Source of the DNA: Candidatus Yanofskybacteria bacterium
GTDB taxonomy: Bacteria > Patescibacteriota > Minisyncoccia > 2-02-FULL-40-12 > GWA2-44-9
Direction of reading: 5' to 3'
NCBI GenBank assembly: GCA_016185505.1
Contig: JACPNL010000011.1
Coordinates: 1-14,466, forward strand
Length of the DNA: 14,466 nt
Part shown: piece after piece, positions 1 to 14,466 of the stretch
Layout of the letters: each line of letters starts with the position of its first letter
Position numbering within the stretch: the stretch's first letter is position 1
The notes under the pieces: generated by a model
Told to the model about the DNA's origin: nothing
Seen by the model: the letters and a program-made list of their open reading frames with translations, nothing else
Databases searched by the model: none
Translations under genes and position numbers: made by a program

Positions 1-882
1 GGGAAGAATTATCTCTACATTCCCCACGGCCCGGTAGTAGATTTTTCAAATGCGCAAAGCGCAAAGCCGGAGGCAATTGAAAAATTCACTACCGGGCACG
101 GGCCGGAGATGTTGACTAAAAATTTTCAAGTTCAAGTTAAGAACGAGGTTGATAATTTTATGCGGTATCTTAAAAAGCTGGCAAGAGAAGAAAAATCAAT
201 TTTTGTGAAAATGGAACCTGCTTCCGATGTCGTTACGGAGACAATTTTCAGAAAAGGAATGAAGCGGTCAAAAAAAGAAATCCAGCCAGCAAAGTCAGTT
301 ATCCTTGATCTTTTCTTACCGGAAGATGAACTTTTGGCGCGGATGCACCACAAGACGAGGTATAATATCCGTCTCGCTGAGAAAAAAGGCCTGTGGCTGG
401 AAGAGTCAACCGACGTTGAAACATTCTGGAAGTTGCTCCAGAAGACCGCGAAGAAGGATAAGTTTTACACTCATGAAAAAAGTTATTACGAAAAACTTCT
501 GTCGTATTTTGCTCACGATCGTGAGAAAAATACGACAGAACTCTCAACACTACTGTTTTTTGTTTATTACAAAGACAAACCAATCGCCGGTGCAATAGTA
601 ATGTCGTATGGAGATACTGCATATTATCTGCACGGAGCGATGGACCGGAGTTACAAAGAACTAATGGCGCCGTATGCTTTGCACTGGGAGAATATAAAAT
701 TCTTGAAGCAAAAAGGATTCAAATACTACGATCTTTGGGGTATTGACGCGCAAAAGTGGCCCGGCGTTACCCGCTTCAAGCTCGGCTGGGGAGGCGATAC
801 AAAAGAATACCCCGGCTCGTTCGACATCCCTGTCTCAAAATTTTGGTATTTAATGTATAACCTTGCCAGAAAGGTATTTTAG
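1..882 (+). CDS. FemAB-family peptidyltransferase (peptidoglycan interpeptide bridge / aminoacyl-tRNA dependent); 5' partial, reading frame open to window start
   Basis: Frame 1 has no stop from position 1 to the annotated ATG at 109 (GKNYLYIPHGPVVDF...), so the gene continues upstream of the window. The C-terminal half carries FemAB-like segments (AYYLHGAMDRSYKELMAPYALHWENIKFLKQKGFKYYDLWGI). Stop TAG at 880-882. Confidence 0.55.
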   Translation, partial: GKNYLYIPHGPVVDFSNAQSAKPEAIEKFTTGHGPEMLTKNFQVQVKNEVDNFMRYLKKLAREEKSIFVKMEPASDVVTETIFRKGMKRSKKEIQPAKSVILDLFLPEDELLARMHHKTRYNIRLAEKKGLWLEESTDVETFWKLLQKTAKKDKFYTHEKSYYEKLLSYFAHDREKNTTELSTLLFFVYYKDKPIAGAIVMSYGDTAYYLHGAMDRSYKELMAPYALHWENIKFLKQKGFKYYDLWGIDAQKWPGVTRFKLGWGGDTKEYPGSFDIPVSKFWYLMYNLARKVF

Positions 883-1967: not shown

Positions 1968-3455
1968 ATGTTCAAAGAAGGATTGTTGGACAAAATTTTA
2001 AGAAATATCAAAAAACTGATACCGAAGTCGGTATTTGATTTTTTTGCGCCGGTTTATCATGCTACTTTAGCTTATGTCGGGGCTTTTTTGTACGGATTTC
2101 CATCACGTTCAATGAAGGTCATCGGTGTGACGGGAACTAAAGGCAAGTCAACGACGGTTTTTTTGATAAGTAAGATTTTGGAGGCGGCAGAATTAACGAC
2201 ATCGGAAGGCCAAAGGACTTCCGATGTCAATGTGGAGGAGCGCCCTCCACAAGGCGGGGTGGCGGCAATCGGGTCTCTCGGATATAAAATAAAAGATAAA
2301 GAATGGCCGAATACTCTGAAAATGACAATGCCCGGCCGGTTCAAATTGCAGAAATTCCTGGCCGAAGCCAAAAGAGCCGGATGCAAGTATGTGGTTCTTG
2401 AAGTGACTTCGGAGGGCATCAAACAAAAGCGCCATATGGGAGTAAAATTTGATTGTGCCGTGTTTACTAATCTGCACGAAGAGCATATTGAAAGTCACGG
2501 TTCTTTTAAAAATTACTATAAAGCCAAGCAGGAATTATTCAAAAAGACCTCAAATATTCACGTAATTAATGCCGATGATCCCCGCGTAGATTTGTTTGGG
2601 AACTTTCCGGCAAAGCATAAGATATTTTATGGATTGGAAAAAGGGGATTTGGTTGCCGGCAAAATTCAGTCCACGGAAAAAGGAACATCATTTGAACTTT
2701 ATGGCACGCGCTTTGACACTCATTTGGCCGGAGAGTTTAATGTTATGAATTGTCTGGCGGCGCTGGCGGTGGGGGCGATGTATAAGATTGATTTGCCCGC
2801 GATGAAACCGGTTTTGGAGTCAATTAAATTTATTCCGGGAAGGATGGAGTTCATACAGCGGGAGCCGTTTGGAGTGGTGGTAGATTATGCGCACACGCCA
2901 GATTCTTTGCGAAGCGTTTATCAAACGCTTCGCAAGAATCTGGCGCAACCAACAACCAACCCCGCACCAAGCTTATCCGCTGACCGCCATTCAGAAAGGG
3001 GGCGGGCTTGGAGCGGGGCAGGCAACCGACAACCAACAACAGGAAAATTGATTTGTGTTCTTGGTGCGGCGGGCGGGGGTAGAGATAAATGGAAAAGGCC
3101 CGAATTCGGAAGAATCGCGTCGGAATACTGCGATGAGATTATTTTGACGAATGAAGACCCCTATGATGAAAATCCCCAAAGCATCATCAAAGATATTGAA
3201 AGGGGATTTTCATCGAAATTTTCAATTTTCAATTTTCAATTTTCAAATAAATCCCAATTACCAAATCACAAAATAATTCTTGACCGTCGTGAGGCAATTC
3301 AAACTGCCTTGACAGATGCCGGGGAAGGTGATACCGTTATTATCACAGGGAAGGGTTCGGAGACGTCAATGGCCGTCGCGGGGGGCAGGAAGCTCCCTTG
3401 GTCGGACAAGGATGTCGTCCGTGAAGCTCTTCGACAACAATCCTCCTGCGCATAA
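1968..3455 (+). CDS. Mur ligase family protein, MurE-like (UDP-N-acetylmuramoyl-tripeptide synthetase-like) lacking the canonical N-terminal domain; contains low-complexity in-frame insertions
   Basis: P-loop GVTGTKGKSTT, central domain VVLEVTSEGIKQKRH ... FTNLHEEHIESHG, MurE-type DYAHTPDSL motif, GAAGGGRDKWKRPEFG, C-terminal ITGKGSE. Only about 50 aa precede the P-loop, against about 110 in MurE. Confidence 0.8.
   Translation: MFKEGLLDKILRNIKKLIPKSVFDFFAPVYHATLAYVGAFLYGFPSRSMKVIGVTGTKGKSTTVFLISKILEAAELTTSEGQRTSDVNVEERPPQGGVAAIGSLGYKIKDKEWPNTLKMTMPGRFKLQKFLAEAKRAGCKYVVLEVTSEGIKQKRHMGVKFDCAVFTNLHEEHIESHGSFKNYYKAKQELFKKTSNIHVINADDPRVDLFGNFPAKHKIFYGLEKGDLVAGKIQSTEKGTSFELYGTRFDTHLAGEFNVMNCLAALAVGAMYKIDLPAMKPVLESIKFIPGRMEFIQREPFGVVVDYAHTPDSLRSVYQTLRKNLAQPTTNPAPSLSADRHSERGRAWSGAGNRQPTTGKLICVLGAAGGGRDKWKRPEFGRIASEYCDEIILTNEDPYDENPQSIIKDIERGFSSKFSIFNFQFSNKSQLPNHKIILDRREAIQTALTDAGEGDTVIITGKGSETSMAVAGGRKLPWSDKDVVREALRQQSSCA
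3217..3244 (+). repeat. 4 x AATTTTC heptamer tandem repeat inside Mur ligase CDS
   Basis: Direct reading: aattttc aattttc aattttc aattttc (encodes FSIFNFQFS). Confidence 0.9.
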
Positions 3456-5142: not shown

Positions 5143-5156
5143 TATGCGATACCAAT

Positions 5157-5218
5157 ATACTAATTCATACTAATGATACGAATAGTGTTTCGTTCTTCCA
5201 TTAGTATAATTAGTATGC
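5157..5218. repeat. Long imperfect inverted repeat (arms ATACTAATTCATACTAATG / CATTAGTATAATTAGTAT, 23-nt loop)
   Basis: The right arm (5199-5218) is the reverse complement of the left arm (5157-5175) apart from a one-nucleotide bulge. Each arm is itself a direct repeat of ATACTAAT. Confidence 0.7.
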
Positions 5219-5249
5219 ATTCGTATATTAGCATCGCGATAGTGTTAGC

Positions 5250-5417: not shown

Positions 5418-6247
5418 TTCGATTAGGGCCCTTACTATTTATCAAGGAAGTAGTTCTTTTTGGCCTTACGCTGGCTCTTGGTCTCTATACCGCTTATTAT
5501 TACTCTTTTTACTTTACCGATCTGGTTCAGAATGGAATGGTGAATTTTACGCCGGCTGATCTGATTATTTTGGCTATTTTGTTCGTCGCTATTTTCTTTG
5601 TGGCGCGGCACAAGAGGGTTGCCCGCTTTTCCTTCAGGTTCTTTCTTATATTGATCGTCTTTTCCGGAACTCAAGTTGTGTTGGGCACTATTCTGCCTTC
5701 GCCTTGGGACTTGTTGTTTGCGGTTATCTTTACTTTAATATTCTCTATCGGTATTAATGTGTTGGTTCACAATCTAGGTATTATTCTTGGAATTGCCGGT
5801 ATTGCGGCTGTATTCGGTCTCTCTATTTCAATTGAGTTCGGGCTTGTCCTGTTGGTTGTTCTTTCTTTATATGACATAGTGGCCGTTTATGTGACAAAGC
5901 ACATGGTGACTATGGCCAGAAGTATGGTCGAAGGCGGTGCGGTGTTTGGATTTTTAATTCCGTTTGAGTTCAAAGGATTTTTTTATGGAAGAGATGAGGC
6001 AAAGGCCGGAATAGGGGAGAATTTCATGATACTTGGTTCGGGAGATATCGGATTGCCGCTTATTTTTGCGGTTTCTCTGGTTAGGGTTTCTCTGATATCC
6101 GCGATAATTACGGCCACATTCTCTTTGCTGGGATTATTTATTACTCACCTTCTTTTTATAAACCAAGGACAGCGAAGGGCAATGGCGGCTTTGCCACCGA
6201 TCGCGACACTTACAATAATTGGTTACCTTGTAACCCAATTATTGTAA
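5414..6247 (+). CDS. Polytopic membrane protein, presenilin / signal-peptide-peptidase-like (A22 family-like) intramembrane aspartyl protease candidate
   Basis: About 8 TM segments. Candidate catalytic motifs sit in TM helices: LSLYDIVAVY (YD), ILGSGDIGLPLIF (GxGD) and AALPPIA (PAL-like). Confidence 0.45.
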   Translation: MIRLGPLLFIKEVVLFGLTLALGLYTAYYYSFYFTDLVQNGMVNFTPADLIILAILFVAIFFVARHKRVARFSFRFFLILIVFSGTQVVLGTILPSPWDLLFAVIFTLIFSIGINVLVHNLGIILGIAGIAAVFGLSISIEFGLVLLVVLSLYDIVAVYVTKHMVTMARSMVEGGAVFGFLIPFEFKGFFYGRDEAKAGIGENFMILGSGDIGLPLIFAVSLVRVSLISAIITATFSLLGLFITHLLFINQGQRRAMAALPPIATLTIIGYLVTQLL

Positions 6248-6388
6248 ATTGACCTAATTATACTAATTAACCTAATTATTCTAAATAATGCCCAATACCT
6301 AATCACCAAATGCCTAAAACAGCTTGGTCATTCGGTCATTAGAATTTATTTAGGTCAATTAGATTAATTAGAACAATTAGAATAATTT
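6248..6388. repeat. About 140-bp AT-rich palindromic intergenic element (copy A) built from 9-bp TAATTNNNC units in inverted arms; MITE-like
   Basis: Left arm ttgacc taattatac taattaacc taattattc taaataat. Right arm atttattta ggtcaatta gattaatta gaacaatta gaataatt. Strongly similar to 13350-13495. It directly abuts the ATG at 6389. Confidence 0.7.
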
Positions 6389-7804
6389 ATGAAACTTACT
6401 TTCTATGGTGGTGCTCGCCAAGTGACCGGAGCCAACTACTTGTTGGAGTTGGGCCCCGACGCAAGGTCGGGGTCAACAACCAAGTTGTTGGTTGATTGCG
6501 GGATGTTTCAGGGTTCAAGGTATGCGGAAGACCTGAACTATGAAAAATTTCCATATGATCCGGCGGAGATTAATTTTATTTTTATCACTCATAGTCATAC
6601 CGACCACGCTGGACGCTTGCCCAAGTTGTATAAAGAAGGATTCAGGGGCAAGGTCGTTGCGACAAACGCGACCCTTGATCTTATCAGAAAAGCTCTGCCG
6701 GACAACTTAAGATTGATAGAACAAGAAGCAAAAGATACTGGACGAGAACCACTGTTCTCTCTTGAGAACTTGGAAGGTGTTCTTAATTTGGTTCAGGGAG
6801 TTGATTATGAGGAAAATATTGAATTAGGTGGTGGTCTTGAAGTTAAATTACATGATGCCGGACACATATTGGGTTCTTCCATCGTGGAAATACGATGGAA
6901 GAACAAATCCGAAATCCGAAATCCGAAATCCGAAAATAATTCGAAACATCTTTACTTTACCGGTGATCTGGGGAATCCCCCGACACCCTTATTGAAATCG
7001 CCTTATTACCCCAATGATGCTGATTATGTCGTTATAGAGTCCGCCTACGGTTCAAGAACTCACGAGGATAAGGCCGAAAGAAAGAATATTTTACAGAAGA
7101 TCATAATTGAAACCATCCAAAGAGGTGGTGTGCTGACGATACCTTCGTTCGCGATGGAAAGAACGCAGGAACTTCTCTATGAACTCAATGGTCTGTTCAA
7201 CGACAATAAAATTCCCAAAGTACCCGTTTTTGTCGATTCTCCTCTGGCTACCAATTTGACCGAGGTGTACAGAAAGCATTCGGATTATTTCAATAAAGAA
7301 ACTATGTATATAATTAATTCCGGTGACGATATATTTAATTTTCCCGGGCTAAAATTCACTCGTACCACCGAAGAATCAAAACAGATAAACGATGTTACTC
7401 CGCCGAAGATAATAATTGCCGGCTCGGGAATGTCTACCGGCGGCCGGATATTGCATCACGAAAGGCGTTATCTGCAGGATCCGAATTCCACTATTCTGTT
7501 CATCGGTTATCAAGTAAAAGGTTCTTTGGGCAGGAGAATTTTGGATGAGGAAAAAGAGGTCAAAATATTCGGCGAAAAAGTTACCGTGAACTGCAAAGTG
7601 GAGGCGATAGGAGGATACTCCGCTCACGCCGACAGCGAAGGGCTTTTGGAATGGGTCAAAACCGCGAACAGCGAAGGTAAATTAAAAAAGGTATTTGTGG
7701 TGCAAGGCGAAGAGGATTCCTCATTGGCTCTCGCAAGAAAAATAGAAAGAGCGCTGGAAATTGATGCGGTGGTGCCGAAGCAAGGGGAAGGGTTCGAGTT
7801 GTAG
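6389..7804 (+). CDS. MBL-fold metallo-hydrolase, beta-CASP RNA-metabolising family (RNase J / CPSF-like ribonuclease)
   Basis: HSHTDHAG (HxHxDH), LVDCGMFQG, a beta-CASP region and C-terminal GGYSAHAD. 471 aa. Confidence 0.8.
   Translation: MKLTFYGGARQVTGANYLLELGPDARSGSTTKLLVDCGMFQGSRYAEDLNYEKFPYDPAEINFIFITHSHTDHAGRLPKLYKEGFRGKVVATNATLDLIRKALPDNLRLIEQEAKDTGREPLFSLENLEGVLNLVQGVDYEENIELGGGLEVKLHDAGHILGSSIVEIRWKNKSEIRNPKSENNSKHLYFTGDLGNPPTPLLKSPYYPNDADYVVIESAYGSRTHEDKAERKNILQKIIIETIQRGGVLTIPSFAMERTQELLYELNGLFNDNKIPKVPVFVDSPLATNLTEVYRKHSDYFNKETMYIINSGDDIFNFPGLKFTRTTEESKQINDVTPPKIIIAGSGMSTGGRILHHERRYLQDPNSTILFIGYQVKGSLGRRILDEEKEVKIFGEKVTVNCKVEAIGGYSAHADSEGLLEWVKTANSEGKLKKVFVVQGEEDSSLALARKIERALEIDAVVPKQGEGFEL
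6905..6932 (+). repeat. 4 x AAATCCG heptamer tandem repeat inside MBL-fold ribonuclease CDS
   Basis: aaatccg x4 (encodes SEIRNPKSE). Confidence 0.9.
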
Positions 7805-8757: not shown

Positions 8758-8799
8758 TCTTGTCTCAATTTTCCTCGTACGAGGAAAATTGAGACAAGA
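8758..8799. promoter_or_regulatory. 42-bp perfect palindrome in divergent intergenic region (candidate operator / cruciform)
   Basis: TCTTGTCTCAATTTTCCTCGTA | CGAGGAAAATTGAGACAAGA is perfectly self-complementary. It lies between the minus-strand gene start (8668) and the plus-strand gene start (8909). Confidence 0.6.
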
Positions 8800-9694: not shown

Positions 9695-10109
9695 TAGAGC
9701 GAAACTGCCAAATAATTTTTTAGCCTTCCGCTCCAGGAGAGCAGGATTCAAACTCCCATCGTCTTGAGAGACCCAAAAATGAGATGATTTCTTTGGTGTG
9801 ACGACGAAGATGTAGTTTAACACTACTTCGAGGAGGCACAACAAAGAAAGCGTCCATTTTTGGGCTCCCCCTTGGGGCGGGGCGGACTTACTTATCTGCT
9901 TCGTTGTCCAGATTCCTTCGGAATCGAGGATCCTCGATTGCTTCGCAATCGGGACTCGTCGCTTACGTACCGTTAAGGTACGCATCACTCCTCGCGCCTC
10001 GCATATAAGCAAGTCCGCTCCCGCTCAATTGATGCGAGTTTGAATCCTGCTCTCCTACGTCAACGCTAAAAAATTATCTGACCAGTTTCACTCTCTGGAT
10101 GCTTTGATT
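9695..10109. repeat. Palindromic element C2: same outer arms as C1, carrying a different, nested cargo
   Basis: TAGAGCGAAACTGCCAAATAATTTTTTAGCCTTCCGCTCC (9695-9734) matches the C1 left arm. ACGCTAAAAAATTATCTGACCAGTTTCACTC TCTGGATGCTTTGATT (10062-10109) matches the C1 right arm and tail. Confidence 0.7.
9735..10056. mobile_element. Nested 322-bp element with perfect 21-bp terminal inverted repeats (AGGAGAGCAGGATTCAAACTC ... GAGTTTGAATCCTGCTCTCCT), highly structured interior; MITE-like or structured ncRNA
   Basis: Perfect TIR 9735-9755 / 10036-10056. The interior holds several perfect hairpins: ATTCC-TTCG-GGAAT, CGATTGC-TTCG-GCAATCG, GTACC-GTTAA-GGTAC and the CGAGGATCCTCG palindrome. No ORF. 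Confidence 0.55.
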
Positions 10110-10324
10110 CAATCGATGATGTTGGAAAGAAACAAACTATTCATTCTCAAAATTTAGAGGGGTCTCGCTCCTCAACGCTAATTTTTCCGTGTTTTCCGAT
10201 TTTTCAGCGCTTCTGTGGTTAAAATTACCCAACGGCCTCGCTCCTCGGACGTTTTTATTTAATCGACGCAACAAGGGGTCTCGCTCCTTTGTGTTGTTGT
10301 GCTTGGTATTTTTGATGGGGCAGG

Positions 10325-10354
10325 TTGACAAAGCATAGCCCAATATGCTACAAT
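10325..10354 (+). promoter_or_regulatory. Near-consensus sigma70 promoter for nfeD-flotillin operon (TTGACA - 18 bp - TGCTACAAT) with palindrome AGCATA-N6-TATGCT in spacer
   Basis: TTGACA at 10325-10330. TACAAT at 10349-10354, preceded by an extended -10 TG. Inverted repeat AGCATAGCCCAATATGCT in the spacer. Confidence 0.55.
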
Positions 10355-10440
10355 ATTTTGGAAATCTCGAGTTGCCAGAAGGGCTCTCGAGATGGCAGTT
10401 CGTTCACAACTGTGGAGAGCCACGGAGAGAGGAAGGGGAT

Positions 10441-10968
10441 ATGCCACTGTTTATCGTCGCCGGGCTCATGGGGTTCCTGTTCTTCGTTGGGGCACTGATT
10501 TTCGGTGACCACGACGTCGGGCACGACCATGACTTTGATGGCGACCATGACCATGGAGGGTCGAGCGTGTTTTCGGTCTTCAATGTGTCATGGTTTCTCA
10601 TCGGGTTCGGCGGAATGGGGGCGGTTATCAGGGCCAATGACGTGGGGATGCCCGGAAGCACGATGTCCGGTCTCGCGACCGGTATTGCTTGCTGGGGCCT
10701 CGCTTTCTGCGTCATGCACCTGCTTGCAAAACAGCAGGGTGATTCAACCGTGACAGTCGCACGCATCATGAATGCGACTGGTACGGTCGTGATGTCTATT
10801 CCCGCAAACGGGGTGGGCAAGGTCCAGTGCAGTGTGGCCGGAAGCTTGCAAGAGTTTCTGGCTCGCTCGACGACACCGGTTTCGTTGTCGGAAGGTTCTC
10901 AAGTGAGAATCGTCGGCGATGCCGGTGGTGTGTACTTGGTGGAAGCTCAAACACAAGGAGGCAGGTGA
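10441..10968 (+). CDS. NfeD-like membrane protein (short NfeD / YuaF-like, partner of SPFH-flotillin)
   Basis: Start at the ATG at 10441 behind GAGGAAGGGG. The ATG at 10345 lies inside the -10 box. Two TM helices, a His/Asp-rich loop (DHDVGHDHDFDGDHDHGG) and a C-terminal beta domain. The stop overlaps the SD of the downstream flotillin gene. Confidence 0.65.
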   Translation: MPLFIVAGLMGFLFFVGALIFGDHDVGHDHDFDGDHDHGGSSVFSVFNVSWFLIGFGGMGAVIRANDVGMPGSTMSGLATGIACWGLAFCVMHLLAKQQGDSTVTVARIMNATGTVVMSIPANGVGKVQCSVAGSLQEFLARSTTPVSLSEGSQVRIVGDAGGVYLVEAQTQGGR

Positions 10969-10969
10969 C

Positions 10970-11269
10970 ATGGAGTTTTGGAAACAGCTCTCGGCAAACC
11001 TCGGATGGGTTATCGGAACAGTCCTACTGTTCATAGCCATCCTTGGTTCTCTTCGTTACGCGGCAAGCCGGTACAAGAAAGTGCCGCCAAGCCGCGTCGG
11101 GATCATCTACGGCCGTAAGCAGATCTATGAGATCCCGCAACAGGATGGAACCGTAAAGCAGGAGAAGCTTGGATTCCGCCTGCTCACCGGCGGCGGCGCG
11201 CTTGTCCTCCCGTTCTTGGAAGACTATGCCGAGTTGGACCTAAGCGCTCGACGTGATGATCGACGCTAG
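10970..11269 (+). CDS. Flotillin (SPFH-domain, FloT/YuaG-like) N-terminal fragment - interrupted by +1 frameshift near 11243-11256
   Basis: Strong SD AAGGAGG (10954-10960). MEFWKQ...VLLFIAILG TM helix, then GRKQ...FRLLTGGGALVLPFLEDYAELDLS matching flotillin (RGGGTFVFPVFEEVEKLSLEVM). The frame then runs into RRDDRR-stop. Confidence 0.7.
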   Translation: MEFWKQLSANLGWVIGTVLLFIAILGSLRYAASRYKKVPPSRVGIIYGRKQIYEIPQQDGTVKQEKLGFRLLTGGGALVLPFLEDYAELDLSARRDDRR

Positions 11270-12701
11270 AGGCACAGCTACTGTCGTGATCGGAACCGAT
11301 ACGTCGAGTCTCATCACTGCCGCTCGCAACTTCGAAGGTAAGAAGGAACAGGATATCAACCAGATTGCCCGGGAAAACCTGGAAGGCCAACTGCGGTCGA
11401 TTCTCGGCACCTTGACGGTTGAAGACCTGATCGGTGAGCGCAAGAAGCTCAATGAGGCGGTCTTGGAAGGTGCGGAGAGTGAGCTTCTGAAGCTCGGTCT
11501 GCGCATTTCCATCCTGACCATTCAGGAGATCACTGACCAGGTTAAGTACATCGAATCGCTGGGCAAAAAGCGTACCGCCGAAGTTCAGCGGGATGCTACT
11601 ATCGGCGAAGCCGAGGCGCAAAGCAAAGCCAAGATCGCGGCAAGCAACGCCACGAAAGAAGCCGAGACTGTCGCCGCGCAGAACGAAGTCAAGATCGCCG
11701 AGGCCAAGAAGGAGCGTGACGTTCAAGTTGCGCAATTCAAGGCATTGACCGATCGCGAAAAGGCGATTGCCGAACAGGCAGGCGCCATCGCGGCGGCCGA
11801 AGCGGACAAGACAGTGCGTCAGAGGAAGGTTGAGGCCGAAGCGGCCGAGACCACTGCGCGTATCCAACTCGCCGATCAGGAGACTGCTCGTGTCGAGAAG
11901 GAACTGCAGTTCCAGGTCATCAAACCGGCCGAAGCGCAGAAGCAGGCCGCGGTTATCAGGGCCGAGGGAAACAAGCAGACAGGTATCCTCGACGCCGAAA
12001 CCAAGAAGAGGCAACAGGTCATTCAAGCTGAAGCGGCTTTCGAAGCAGCTGCCAAGCAGGCCGACGCGACTCGAACCAAGGCTGAGGCTGATGGTGATGC
12101 TGCGGCAGCAATCGGCAAGGGCGACGCCGAAGCCGTACGTCTAAAGCTCACAGCTGAAGCCGATGGCGAGAAGGCAAAGCGTCTTGCCGCCGCCACGGGT
12201 ACCGAAGCTGAACTGCGGGCGGCTGCATCCGGCAAGGAAGCAGAACTGCTTGCAGAGGCACGCGGTGCTGAAGCAAAGCTCCTCGCAGAGGCCAAGGGTA
12301 AGGAACAGCTGGCTCTCGCGCTTGCCAAACTGGATCAGACAGGCAAACTTCTACAGGTGCTCGACGCAGCCCCCAAGGTTGCAGAGGCCCTGGGCGAAGC
12401 TCTCGCCAAGGCGCTCGGGCCCGACGGCCTTGCCAACGTGTTCGGCCAGATGGCCGCTCCGCTCGGCAGTGTTGACTCGATCCGGATGTATGATTTCGGC
12501 GGGAATGGCCATAACGGTAATGGTGCCGGATCGTTGGCCAAGTATGCCAACATCACACCGGAGCTGTTCTTCAATTTCGTCTCGAAGGCGACGGCACTGG
12601 GTTTCGGGTCTTTGCTCGAGAAGGTCGGGCTGACCTCCGAGATTCTGGACGACATGACAACTTCGGTTTCAACAGGGGCCGATGCATCCGAATCGAAGTA
12701 G
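11253..12701 (+). CDS. Flotillin C-terminal portion (SPFH core, EA-rich flotillin coiled-coil repeats, C-terminal domain); continues the 10970 frame after +1 shift (frame open from 11244)
   Basis: LDVMIDARGTATVVIG...ITDQVKYIESLGKKRTAEVQRDATIGEAEAQSKAKIA aligns with B. subtilis FloT. Long AEA/EAKA repeats follow. Confidence 0.8.
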   Translation: MMIDARGTATVVIGTDTSSLITAARNFEGKKEQDINQIARENLEGQLRSILGTLTVEDLIGERKKLNEAVLEGAESELLKLGLRISILTIQEITDQVKYIESLGKKRTAEVQRDATIGEAEAQSKAKIAASNATKEAETVAAQNEVKIAEAKKERDVQVAQFKALTDREKAIAEQAGAIAAAEADKTVRQRKVEAEAAETTARIQLADQETARVEKELQFQVIKPAEAQKQAAVIRAEGNKQTGILDAETKKRQQVIQAEAAFEAAAKQADATRTKAEADGDAAAAIGKGDAEAVRLKLTAEADGEKAKRLAAATGTEAELRAAASGKEAELLAEARGAEAKLLAEAKGKEQLALALAKLDQTGKLLQVLDAAPKVAEALGEALAKALGPDGLANVFGQMAAPLGSVDSIRMYDFGGNGHNGNGAGSLAKYANITPELFFNFVSKATALGFGSLLEKVGLTSEILDDMTTSVSTGADASESK

Positions 12702-12714
12702 CTCGTTCATTCAT

Positions 12715-12748
12715 AGAGGTCGGGGTAACAACCCCGACCTCTATTCTT
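12715..12748 (+). terminator. Terminator-like 12-bp perfect hairpin after flotillin
   Basis: AGAGGTCGGGGT-AACA-ACCCCGACCTCT followed by ATTCTT (weak U-tract). Confidence 0.5.
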
Positions 12749-12764
12749 AGGAGAGGAGAAAACA

Positions 12765-13220
12765 GTGAAGTACCAACTCACAGAAGGTATTCCGGACGCT
12801 CTCGTGATTCACTGTGCCGATCCGCGTTTTCAGGAAGCCTTCAGAGCCTACCTGAAGAATGATCTCGGTATACGTATGCCGATGATCATAGCGTTGCCTG
12901 GCGTGACCAGCCACTTCGGGATGCAGATGATGTTTCCGAAGAACTGGTACACAGTAAGGTCACACCTCAAGACCATGACAGATCGTCACGATGTGGCACG
13001 AGTCGTCCTTATCAATCACGACGACTGCAAGGGCTACGCCAAGATTGCCGATAAGCTTGGTGGTCTGGTGAAAGTTCCAGAGTGGCAGCGCAAGCACCTC
13101 CATGGCCTGGCAGAGTTTATCAGAAAGGAATATCTGCCTCACGCCTCTTTTGAACTCTACCAAGCGCATATCGTTGAGAAAGGCAGTGTGCGTGAGGTCG
13201 AGTTCGAGAAAATCTTGTAG
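12765..13220 (+). CDS. Hypothetical protein with beta-carbonic-anhydrase-like CxDxR ... HxxC motif arrangement (HCADPRF ... NHDDCKGY)
   Basis: GTG start behind AGGAGAGGAG (12749-12758). 151 aa. The spacing of the Cys-Asp-Arg and His-x-x-Cys motifs resembles the zinc ligands of minimal beta-CAs. The function call is tentative. Confidence 0.5.
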   Translation: MKYQLTEGIPDALVIHCADPRFQEAFRAYLKNDLGIRMPMIIALPGVTSHFGMQMMFPKNWYTVRSHLKTMTDRHDVARVVLINHDDCKGYAKIADKLGGLVKVPEWQRKHLHGLAEFIRKEYLPHASFELYQAHIVEKGSVREVEFEKIL

Positions 13221-13263: not shown

Positions 13264-13312
13264 GCCCCCTTCGGGGGCCAGAGGGGGACACGTGTCCCCC
13301 TTTTAATTTTTT
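13264..13312 (+). terminator. Tandem intrinsic terminators (CCCCC-UUCG-GGGGG hairpin, then GGGGGACAC/GTGTCCCCC perfect hairpin + TTTTAATTTTTT)
   Basis: 13264-13278 GCCCCCTTCGGGGGC. 13283-13300 is a perfect 18-bp palindrome followed by a T-run. Confidence 0.8.
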
Positions 13313-13349: not shown

Positions 13350-13495
13350 CCCAATTATTCTAATTATACTAATTATTCTAATTACTCTAAATAATGACTA
13401 ATCCCCAATCATTAAATGACCAAATCGATTTAGTCATTGAGTCGTTGGGATTTATTTAGGTCAATTAGGTTAATTAGAATAATTAGGTTAATTTA
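13350..13495. repeat. Copy B of the about 140-bp TAATTNNNC-unit palindromic element (see 6248-6388)
   Basis: ctaattatactaattattctaattactctaaataatg ... atttatttaggtcaattaggttaattagaataattaggttaatt. The central part contains the near-perfect palindrome AATGACCAAATCGATTTAGTCATT. Confidence 0.7.
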
Positions 13496-13537: not shown

Positions 13538-14466
13538 GATTTTAAAATCAACAACATCCTTATCCCCGAAGAGCTTCCTCTTATCGCTCTGAAAAACACC
13601 GTCTTATTCCCAAAGGCGGTTATTCCGCTTATCGTTCAGCGGCCCAAATCGGTCAGCGCTTTGGAGTACGCTCATTTAACTGATCGGCTGGTGTTTTTTG
13701 CCACCCAGAGAAGCACCGAAGACGATGTGAACAAAAAAGATATTTTCACTGTGAACAAAAAAGATATTTTCACTACCGGCGTTATCGGCAGGATAATCTC
13801 CGTTCTCAAATTACCCGACGGTTCTTCCAAAGTTGATGTTGAGGGTTTGGTCAGAGCAAGGATAACGGAAATTACCAACGAAGAACCATTCTTCAGGATA
13901 AAGGCCGCTCCGTTCTCGTTGACGGTCAGGGATAGTTTAGAAGAAAAAGCGCTCCTTCGGAAAGCCATAGAGCAGTTTCGAATGATCTCGGAAGTAAGAG
14001 CATTTCCAACAATCCTTCCCGAAATTATATATATGATGTCGCAGATCAAAGACACCGAGCATATTATAAGTTTGATGGCGGTTAATTCCGGTTTAGAAAT
14101 AGAAGATCAGCAAAATGTCCTTGAAATGGAGAGCGCGATAGACGCCTTACGCCAACTAAACACGTATCTGGCCAGAGAGTCGGAATTATTGGAAGCCGAG
14201 AAAAAAGTCGCTAAGGAAACCAAAAAACAACTCGGCAAGATGCAGAAGGAATTGTTTTTGCGGGAGCAACTCAAAAGCATAGAGAAAGAATTGGGCGTTG
14301 ATGACGAGAAAGGCGAAATGGAAACGATAAAACACAAGATAGCCGCCGCGGGAATGCCCAAAGAAGTTGAAGAAAAGGCAAGCAAAGAACTTCATCGTCT
14401 AGGCAAAATGCCGCCATTCAATCCCGAGGTCTCATATCTTCGCACCTATCTTGACTTGATGGTTGA
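13538..14466 (+). CDS. lon: ATP-dependent Lon protease, N-terminal (LON substrate-binding) domain onward; 3' partial (runs off window); start codon unresolved
   Basis: LPLIALKNTVLFPKAVIPLIVQRPKSV ... LKLPDGSSKVDVEGLVRARI is the canonical Lon N-domain. The frame is open from 13538 to the window end. There is no in-frame ATG, GTG or TTG before the LPL motif. The ATG at 13532 is followed immediately by TAA. Confidence 0.8.
13727..13774 (+). repeat. Perfect 24-bp tandem duplication inside lon (VNKKDIFT x2)
   Basis: gtgaacaaaaaagatattttcact occurs twice in direct tandem. Confidence 0.9.

Follow-up and report, generated by a model that had tools for sequence, protein, structure and literature searches.

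An in-frame cassette of 60 nucleotides (nt), built from two hairpins that we call hp1 and hp2, stands in place of a 5-codon loop in the MurE-type Mur ligase gene of a Candidatus Yanofskybacteria bacterium. We consider this cassette, with somewhat more confidence than doubt, to be a selfish or neutral feature of the DNA that is made or maintained by reverse-complement copying, with some cassettes spreading, and not a functional peptide or a regulatory RNA. The window, i.e., the whole stretch of DNA that was analyzed, spans a complete contig (14,466 bp) of a metagenome-assembled genome from the candidate phyla radiation (CPR; Patescibacteria, Paceibacteria-type). The open reading frame (ORF) at positions 1968-3455 of the forward strand is intact and encodes a MurE-type protein of 495 amino acids with the Pfam domains PF08245 (Mur_ligase_M) and PF02875 (Mur_ligase_C). 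It is homologous to the solved MurE structures 4BUB and 1E8C, and all conserved motifs are present, with the invariant residues and catalytic motifs retained. A preliminary description had called this coding sequence AT-rich, which is true only moderately, as its local GC content is about 40-50%. For comparison, we used 103 orthologous MurE proteins and 1.76 Mb of related loci from independent NCBI, JGI, ENA, and Logan assemblies, with 3-21 kb per genome (14 kb for the host genome); loci are labeled L001 and so on, and proteins P0050 and so on.

The cassette lies in a loop of 25 codons (2184-2258, forward strand) between the ILE and VAAIG motifs, after the P-loop helix, where the ancestral loop has 5 codons. 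This site, hotspot B, is one of at least five insert hotspots (A to E) in MurE, and its GC-rich 60-nt cassette consists of an hp1 unit followed by an hp2 unit. The spacing between the GTKGKS and EWPN motifs is 63 amino acids in the window, compared with 43 in most relatives, and 72 of the 103 orthologs possess a minimal loop of five residues (e.g., AAGYK, ANGDG, or SVGEP). The cassette is missing from all solved MurE structures, which align with gaps at window residues of about 77-97, 324-356, and 417-430. In an AlphaFold model of the window protein (predicted local distance difference test, pLDDT, of 74.8), the same three segments are low-confidence coil between well-modeled elements, with a pLDDT of about 50 in the hotspot-B loop. 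The low-complexity loop that had been flagged as unexpected for a Mur ligase is thus an in-frame insertion, specific to the lineage, at a site that tolerates extra residues, as borne out by the ortholog alignment, the solved structures, and the model alike.

The first hairpin, hp1 (2198-2228), has 14-nt arms (2198-2211 and 2215-2228) with one G/A mismatch and a 3-nt AAA loop; its perfect core of 11 bp (2198-2208 and 2218-2228) reads GACATCGGAAG...CTTCCGATGTC. The arms, too, are near-palindromes (GACATC n GATGTC), making hp1 a palindrome of palindromes, and the central base is complemented between the halves (G, then C), as expected for an inverted rather than a tandem duplication. The second hairpin, hp2 (2231-2251), has an 8-bp stem (2231-2238 and 2244-2251; TGTGGAGG agcgc CCTCCACA). 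Both are in frame within the ORF and encode the peptide ...TTSEGQRTSDVNVEERPPQGG.... The two hairpins had been correctly placed in the preliminary description, but their stems had been underestimated, at 8 bp with a 9-nt loop for the first and 7 bp for the second. For the region 2190-2260, the folding energy is -33.8 kcal/mol as RNA (z = -5.5) and -22.5 kcal/mol as DNA (z = -7.4), and none of 200 dinucleotide shuffles reached as good a fold. Across the whole window, seven perfect stems of at least 10 bp with loops of up to 12 nt were found (0.18 expected), and five of at least 12 bp (0 expected). Rfam gave no match on the window.

Direct repeats of GGCGGCA(G)AAT had been proposed to flank the hairpins. 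The copy at 2183-2193 exists; the one placed at 2271-2281 does not, and GGCGGCAAT is found at 2261-2269. These repeats were considered and rejected as target-site duplications: they correspond to the conserved Ala-Ala codons of the EAA and VAAIG motifs, and they are lacking in L162 and L164 even though the same cassette is present there.

In a neighbor-joining tree, hp1 carriers fall into at least three clades and hp2 carriers into at least three, nested among non-carriers. The closest relatives of carriers (85-90% identical) have either ancestral-type minimal loops or the other cassette, and no deletion within the cassette could yield such a minimal loop. From carrier to carrier, cassette identity is 70-93%, compared with 0.45-0.63 at third codon positions of the same genes, whose synonymous sites are saturated; in the 30 codons on each side of the cassette, synonymous identity is 0.56 versus 0.55 elsewhere. 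Spread within homologous-recombination tracts was rejected, since identity in the flanks is not raised. With a conserved cassette between flanks that are not, the cassette alone would be young or constrained, and site-directed spread fits this better than vertical descent or long recombination tracts. Judged from these patterns, the same cassettes have evidently been gained repeatedly, and hp1 and hp2 may themselves be mobile.

Some further searches bear on the source of the cassette. A scan of viral contigs for hp2 returned no matches. A protein-database search with the hp1/hp2 peptides (three frames concatenated) and with the peptide of a second insert, at hotspot D, also returned nothing, but known positives were missed too, so this empty result reflects a word-index limit and is not evidence of absence. 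A possible templating of the hp1 left arm from the conserved EVTSEGIK codons 200 nt downstream was dropped as weak, since only 11 of 13 positions match in the gene of the window itself and other carriers encode TSDV.

Hotspot B has received at least five unrelated cassettes across lineages, all of which fold as hairpins. The hp1 family is found in L161-L164, with perfect 14-bp versions in L162 and L164 and decayed ones in L161 and L163, and the hp2 family in L165-L171 and L083/L092, with nested expansions in L165 and L169; arm decay is also seen in L168. An LRDSQG/LRQAQG family occupies the same loop in L084 and several proteins, L001 has a 13-bp stem there, and the distant L106 and L114 have one of 10 bp. 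Stems of at least 7 bp are present in 26% of minority insert blocks, compared with 6% of length-matched coding controls, and stems of at least 9 bp in 12% versus 2% (ten syntenic gene families). As far as the sequences tell, the common denominator of these inserts is the hairpin and not any given sequence.

Comparison of carriers also separates the pairing from the peptide. Between the window and L162/L164, a T-A pair of hp1 has become A-T by changes on both sides of the stem, and the peptide has gone from TSDVRG to TSEGQR. In hp2, two independent two-sided changes from G-C to A-T have occurred, one in L171 (TGTGAAGGG/CCCTTCACA, peptide VKGAPSQ) and one in L083 (TGTAGAGG/CCTCTACA, peptide VEDAPLQ). 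The hallmarks of a functional mRNA structure, conservation across orthologs and tolerance of G.U pairs, were not found: the 72 orthologs with minimal loops lack the cassette, Rfam is silent, and intragenic stems with exactly one mismatch carry sense-strand G.T in 13 cases and A.C in 14, showing no G.U bias, which argues against selection on mRNA structure. Together, these data suggest a constraint on DNA pairing rather than on the peptide or the mRNA.

A second set of palindromes in the window consists of conserved codons and their inverted copies. In MurE, a palindrome at 2896-2945 (24-nt left arm, 23-nt right arm with one bulged T, loop ATC) covers the codons for the final helix of the middle domain (TPDSLRSVYQTLRKNLA; H311-326 in the model). 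Its left arm is conserved and its right arm is the reverse complement of the left, and other lineages have different perfect stems at the same codons. Farther along the gene, the left arm of a 13-bp inverted repeat (3165-3177 and 3202-3214, forward strand) corresponds to the conserved DENP codons. In the gene for a beta-CASP (RNase J-like) protein, the palindrome at 6873-6904 (forward strand; GTTCTTCCATCGT ggaaat ACGATGGAAGAAC) has conserved GSSIV codons as its left arm and a novel RWKN as its right arm. At this spot, the window, L081, and L163 each have a perfect palindrome, of 13, 15, and 11 bp, respectively; the left arms encode the conserved GSSIV or GSAII, and the right arms mirror exactly, as reverse complements, the synonymous codons of their own lineage, yielding RWKN, QLTS, and QWQN, with four of four synonymous differences mirrored in the other arm. 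A further hairpin of the beta-CASP gene, at 6477-6494, has conserved LLVD codons as its right arm.

The same pattern was found in a FemAB-family gene, where a palindrome at 497-540 (forward strand; 22-nt arms, 95% complementary) has conserved LLSYF codons as its left arm, and where the center and right arm make up an 8-codon insert (AHDREKNTT) found only in the window, L168, and L167. Among relatives, 'ESLIQVYQTL' is a codon-aligned palindrome, and the hotspot-B loop of L165 contains a 24-bp nested palindrome in which the right flank AAGG was copied as CCTT. Sequence that is the exact reverse complement of its neighbor, as template switching would produce, was thus found at 2896-2945, 6873-6904, 497-540, and 6477-6494 and in L165. 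With conserved codons in one arm and their exact reverse complement in the other, these palindromes cannot be imported elements, and template switching rather than transposition is indicated. For hp1 and hp2 the case is indirect: the palindrome of palindromes with its complemented center base suggests that they, too, are products of template switching.

Other inserts do have copies elsewhere. The preliminary description had reported the same phenomenon at 2945-3040 and 6439-6492, and both reports held. The first is the hotspot-D insert of MurE (2946-3041, forward strand), whose 32 codons comprise (CAACCAA)x2.1 at 2946-2960, a long palindromic core at 2964-3022, and then an CAACnnACAACCAACAAC repeat. 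It has no counterpart in solved MurE structures, and residues 330-356 are modeled with a pLDDT below 50. Its core (2964-3022) recurs in opposite orientation and in frame in hotspot A of MurE at L164:193-257 (92% over 65 nt), in frame in the RuvA linker at L169:6911-6980, and in intergenic DNA at L081:15094-15124. An exhaustive HMMER search with the 32-residue insert gave a single match, P0121, which was rejected as spurious, satellite-like repetitive sequence, and a 17-mer of this insert had one chance match in viral contigs, inside a phage gene of 62% GC.

The second is a 7-codon beta-CASP insert, GPDARSG (6454-6494, forward strand), which contains the hairpin CCCCGAC gcaag GTCGGGG (arms 6454-6460 and 6466-6472) and the 7-bp hairpin with arms at 6477-6483 and 6488-6494. 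These seven codons are missing from L163, and the opposite strand of the L128 MurE gene contains a 21-nt copy of the 6454-6472 hairpin. Nine copies were found of a 24-nt hairpin (CCGCC-TTCG..TTCG-GGCGG); they lie in intergenic DNA, in beta-CASP, and in hotspots A, C, and D of MurE, and they are translated in all three frames (PAFVKTSAG, RLRRGFGG, and PPSHKASAD), a signature of a DNA-level element. 'LRQAQG' (CCCTTCGGCAGGCTCAGGG) is found in four different genes or sites. An imperfect palindrome at 9906-9955 (25-nt arms, 76% complementary, with a perfect 9-bp core at 9922-9939) has copies at the non-orthologous places L001:7217-7251 (MurE hotspot E), L088:671-688, and L093:5011-5027. In the FemAB-family gene, an in-frame inverted-repeat insert at 29-97 (forward strand; 25-nt arms, 88% complementary) is 97% identical to L084:1925-1993, although identity between the two FemAB proteins is no more than about 61%, and the insert is missing from closer relatives. 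The sequences show that other palindromes of the window arose by in-situ inverted duplication and that other insert families are dispersed.

Two other inserts of similar kind were seen. An intergenic inverted repeat at 5146-5237 (38-nt arms, 84% complementary) has a 92%-similar copy in a distant member of the Paceibacteria (L115:183-265), suggesting another dispersed palindromic element. At hotspot C, an insert of 9-10 codons, PAFV(K/R)TSAGE (CCCGCCTTCGTTAAAACTTCGGCGGG), is found at the same point in L161, L169/L093, L001, L171, P0050, P0057, and P0062, whose proteins are 62-82% identical; intervening lineages and the window lack it.

The abundance of such stems is a trait of the lineage. Intragenic perfect stems of at least 11 bp number 14.9 per 100 kb of ORF in loci of the Yanofskybacteria clade, 7.1 in other CPR loci, and at most 3.7 in non-CPR loci, with about 0.5 expected by chance. 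Tandem arrays of the clade are dominated by a period of 7 nt (12.7 per 100 kb versus 5.9 in other CPR bacteria and 0.8 in non-CPR bacteria). These arrays lie inside genes and typically have 4.3-4.9 copies; of 77 arrays, 27 are no more than 6 nt away from a perfect hairpin, compared with 4.4 expected. In the window, the arrays at 2946, 3217, and 6905 each directly follow a palindrome with a conserved arm; they include a perfect (AATTTTC)x4.3 at hotspot E (3217-3246, forward strand; peptide KFSIFNFQFS) and (AAATCCG)x4.4 at 6905-6935 (forward strand), immediately after the 6873-6904 palindrome.

These observations can be combined as follows. hp1 and hp2 would be the DNA skeleton of the 60-nt cassette, which took the place of five ancestral surface-loop codons in MurE without loss of the reading frame. 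Very short palindromic inserts of this class would occur throughout the lineage, in genes of Yanofskybacteria and related Paceibacteria. Reverse-complement copying, by template switching during replication or repair (snap-back synthesis), would create these inserts, enlarge them, and keep them perfect; some insert sequences would, in addition, reach permissive loops of other genes and lineages, be it the same loop or a different one; and selection would leave only in-frame, stop-free copies in tolerant loops. The enzymology of the copying and the neutrality of the encoded peptide are presumed. We put forward more tentatively, as possible but rather doubtful, that a copying mechanism is unusually active in Yanofskybacteria and related Paceibacteria, either a hyperactive template-switching or snap-back polymerase or a new kind of ultra-short (about 20-65 nt) mobile hairpin cassette with a homing-like preference for loops, which would write perfect coding palindromes, cassettes, and heptamer arrays of about 4.5 copies into essential genes and be a main source of protein indels in the radiation.

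Several points weigh against the selfish or neutral reading. The covariation is small, with one two-sided change in hp1 and two in hp2, and the shuffle controls were not significant (109/500 for hp1, 58/500 and 20/500 for hp2). Conservation of the cassette above the synonymous level could mean purifying selection on some function. No other copy of hp1 or hp2, for which the preliminary description had called for a search, was found outside this MurE site in the 1.76 Mb of related loci, so their mobility would be read from recurrence at one site only. Neither a transposase nor any other copying enzyme was identified in the 3-21 kb covered per genome, in which no scan for the Y1 transposase family of RAYT (PF01797) was made. 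The ancestral loop is replaced in carriers and not merely interrupted, which is unusual for transposition, and the carrier clades were read from a tree without bootstrap support, with which the pairwise identities agree.

The selfish or neutral reading has to be weighed against three others. A purely local origin, in which hp1 and hp2 grew in the loop by iterative inverted duplication and slippage (template switching) and never moved, and in which their patchiness would reflect ancestral polymorphism, very short gene-conversion tracts between co-existing lineages, or tree error, is in our view unlikely, yet it deserves more weight than the other two. It would account for the lack of further hp1 or hp2 copies in the 1.76 Mb of related loci, the palindrome-of-palindromes structure of hp1 with its complemented center base, the nested growth in L165 and L169 by copying of flanking bases, the clear in-situ inverted duplications elsewhere in the window, and stems that show decay and repair alike. 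It is difficult to reconcile with cassettes of the same 40-60 nt in at least three clades whose closest relatives (85-88% identical) have ancestral-type loops not derivable by deletion, with a cassette far more alike between carriers than synonymous sites while its flanks are not raised, and with sister insert families that are demonstrably dispersed between genes. An assembly or amplification artifact in this metagenome contig has a negligible probability: chimeric amplification or assembly-graph errors can yield perfect palindromes, but diverged orthologous hairpins are found in assemblies of four independent sources (NCBI, JGI, ENA, and Logan), the reading frame is kept, the same codons are hit, and compensatory as well as decayed variants exist.

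A selected function is the remaining explanation, and we consider it improbable. The hairpin might act in the mRNA, by pausing translation past the P-loop helix or where domains meet, by providing an RNase site, or by adding stability; it might have a role in the DNA; or the loop peptide might have one in MurE. This would agree with pairing that is kept through two-sided changes, with hairpins that recur, in different sequences, both at hotspot B and at the DYAHTP helix, and with a cassette more conserved than synonymous sites. Nevertheless, 70% of close orthologs do without it, the arms have decayed in three carriers (L161, L163, and L168), the stems are perfectly Watson-Crick with no excess of G.U on the sense strand (13 versus 14) and no Rfam match, the same kind of hairpin is found in many unrelated genes and in intergenic DNA, and the peptide varies where the stems covary. 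We therefore retain a selfish or neutral DNA-level feature as the best explanation.

In the preliminary description, the inserts had been likened to Rickettsia palindromic elements (RPEs). The likeness is sound insofar as they are palindromic inserts that sit in frame in tolerant loops, recur, and are in part dispersed; the identity is not. The inserts are RPE-like in behavior but are not RPEs, because size and host differ and because the proposed target-site duplications are Ala-Ala codons. As with RPEs, palindromic, hairpin-forming DNA is inserted in frame and compatibly with the fold into unrelated housekeeping genes, in tolerant surface-type segments; there are several families, the arms decay over time, and the host genome is small and reduced; and some inserts are dispersed and readable in either orientation or several frames. 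RPEs are about 100-150 bp long (PMC10969869, summarising Ogata et al. 2000), whereas hp1 has 31 nt, hp2 21 nt, the cassette 60 nt, and the dispersed families 19-65 nt, which falls short of RPE length. The host belongs to a CPR phylum, and the distinction by size and host was drawn against RPEs as described. In a further difference from RPEs, a large share of the present palindromes are host codons copied in inverted form in situ rather than insertions, and one loop has been hit repeatedly by different cassettes.

For the in-situ inverted copies, the closest described analogue is the coding palindromes of Nematomorpha mitochondria (PMC6649704). These are also perfect inverted repeats in conserved coding sequence with both arms translated, they show dynamic gain and loss between species, for which template switching was proposed, and their all-or-nothing arm identity likewise suggests active conversion. 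They reach 284 bp and reside in organelle genomes, whereas here stems are 11-24 bp, in a free bacterial genome, and occur alongside dispersed mini-hairpins and heptamer arrays. Both perfect stems and compensatory changes of several bases are documented as products of template switching (PMC8794818, PMC5453318). What we see resembles template-switch or quasi-palindrome mutations (PMC5453318, PMC8794818, PMC3820800) in that newly added sequence exactly reverse-complements the sequence beside it and perfect stems form in one step; multi-base compensatory changes, for which beta-CASP makes a strong case, may be shared by hp1 and hp2. They are known as sporadic events, whereas here they are apparently a major source of in-frame indels (about 15 stems of at least 11 bp per 100 kb), and template switching alone does not explain identical cassettes in different genes and clades. 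Repetitive extragenic palindromic sequences (REP/REPIN, mobilized by RAYT) are similar in length (20-40 nt), GC-rich imperfect palindromic structure, dispersal in families, and lack of an obvious target-site duplication; they are extragenic by definition, whereas the hairpins described here are in frame inside the ORF. The terminal inverted repeats and target-site duplications typical of miniature inverted-repeat transposable elements were not seen here.

We did not find this phenomenon described for CPR bacteria in the searchable literature. In-frame selfish palindromes have so far been a curiosity of Rickettsia, and coding palindromes one of a few mitochondria; both would now be present, along with a signature of 7-nt arrays, in essential genes of an uncultured CPR lineage, which suggests that a specific feature of DNA replication or repair in these reduced genomes shapes the gain of protein loops. 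The system would offer a natural setting in which to study mutagenesis by template switching and how new peptide segments are born, and would account for odd, recurring low-complexity CPR peptides such as LRQAQG, FGGQA, KASEG, PAFVKTSAG, and KSEIRNP. It should also serve as a warning to annotators and phylogeneticists that such segments may be DNA-level passengers and not homologous protein characters.

Other features of the window were recorded. About 3 kb at 10300-13220, between a LOG-family gene and lon, have a GC content of 55-63% compared with about 40% in the rest of the contig and encode an SPFH/Band-7 protein (11253-12701) and a putative carbonic-anhydrase-like ORF (12765-13220). In the syntenic relatives L163 and L166-L168, LOG is followed directly by lon, which suggests that this segment was acquired as an island. 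A hairpin with a 14-bp stem, immediately past the Band-7 gene (12713-12744), is terminator-like without a clear T-run, and at the island end lies a perfect 20-nt palindrome (13282-13301; AGGGGGACAC|GTGTCCCCCT). The right edge of the island is adjoined by one (13353-13493) of two AT-rich palindromic copies of about 145 bp, the other being at 6245-6389; they are 82% identical and both intergenic, their arms are made of the 9-nt units CTAATTATA/AATTATTCT, and no copies were seen in the other loci. Upstream of the LOG gene, an intergenic perfect palindrome of 42 nt (8758-8799; 21-nt arms, no loop) has an 88% copy at the orthologous place in L167. Finally, a perfect 24-nt tandem duplication at 13726-13774 doubles the eight residues VNKKDIFT in the N-terminal domain of Lon; orthologs lack this duplication.

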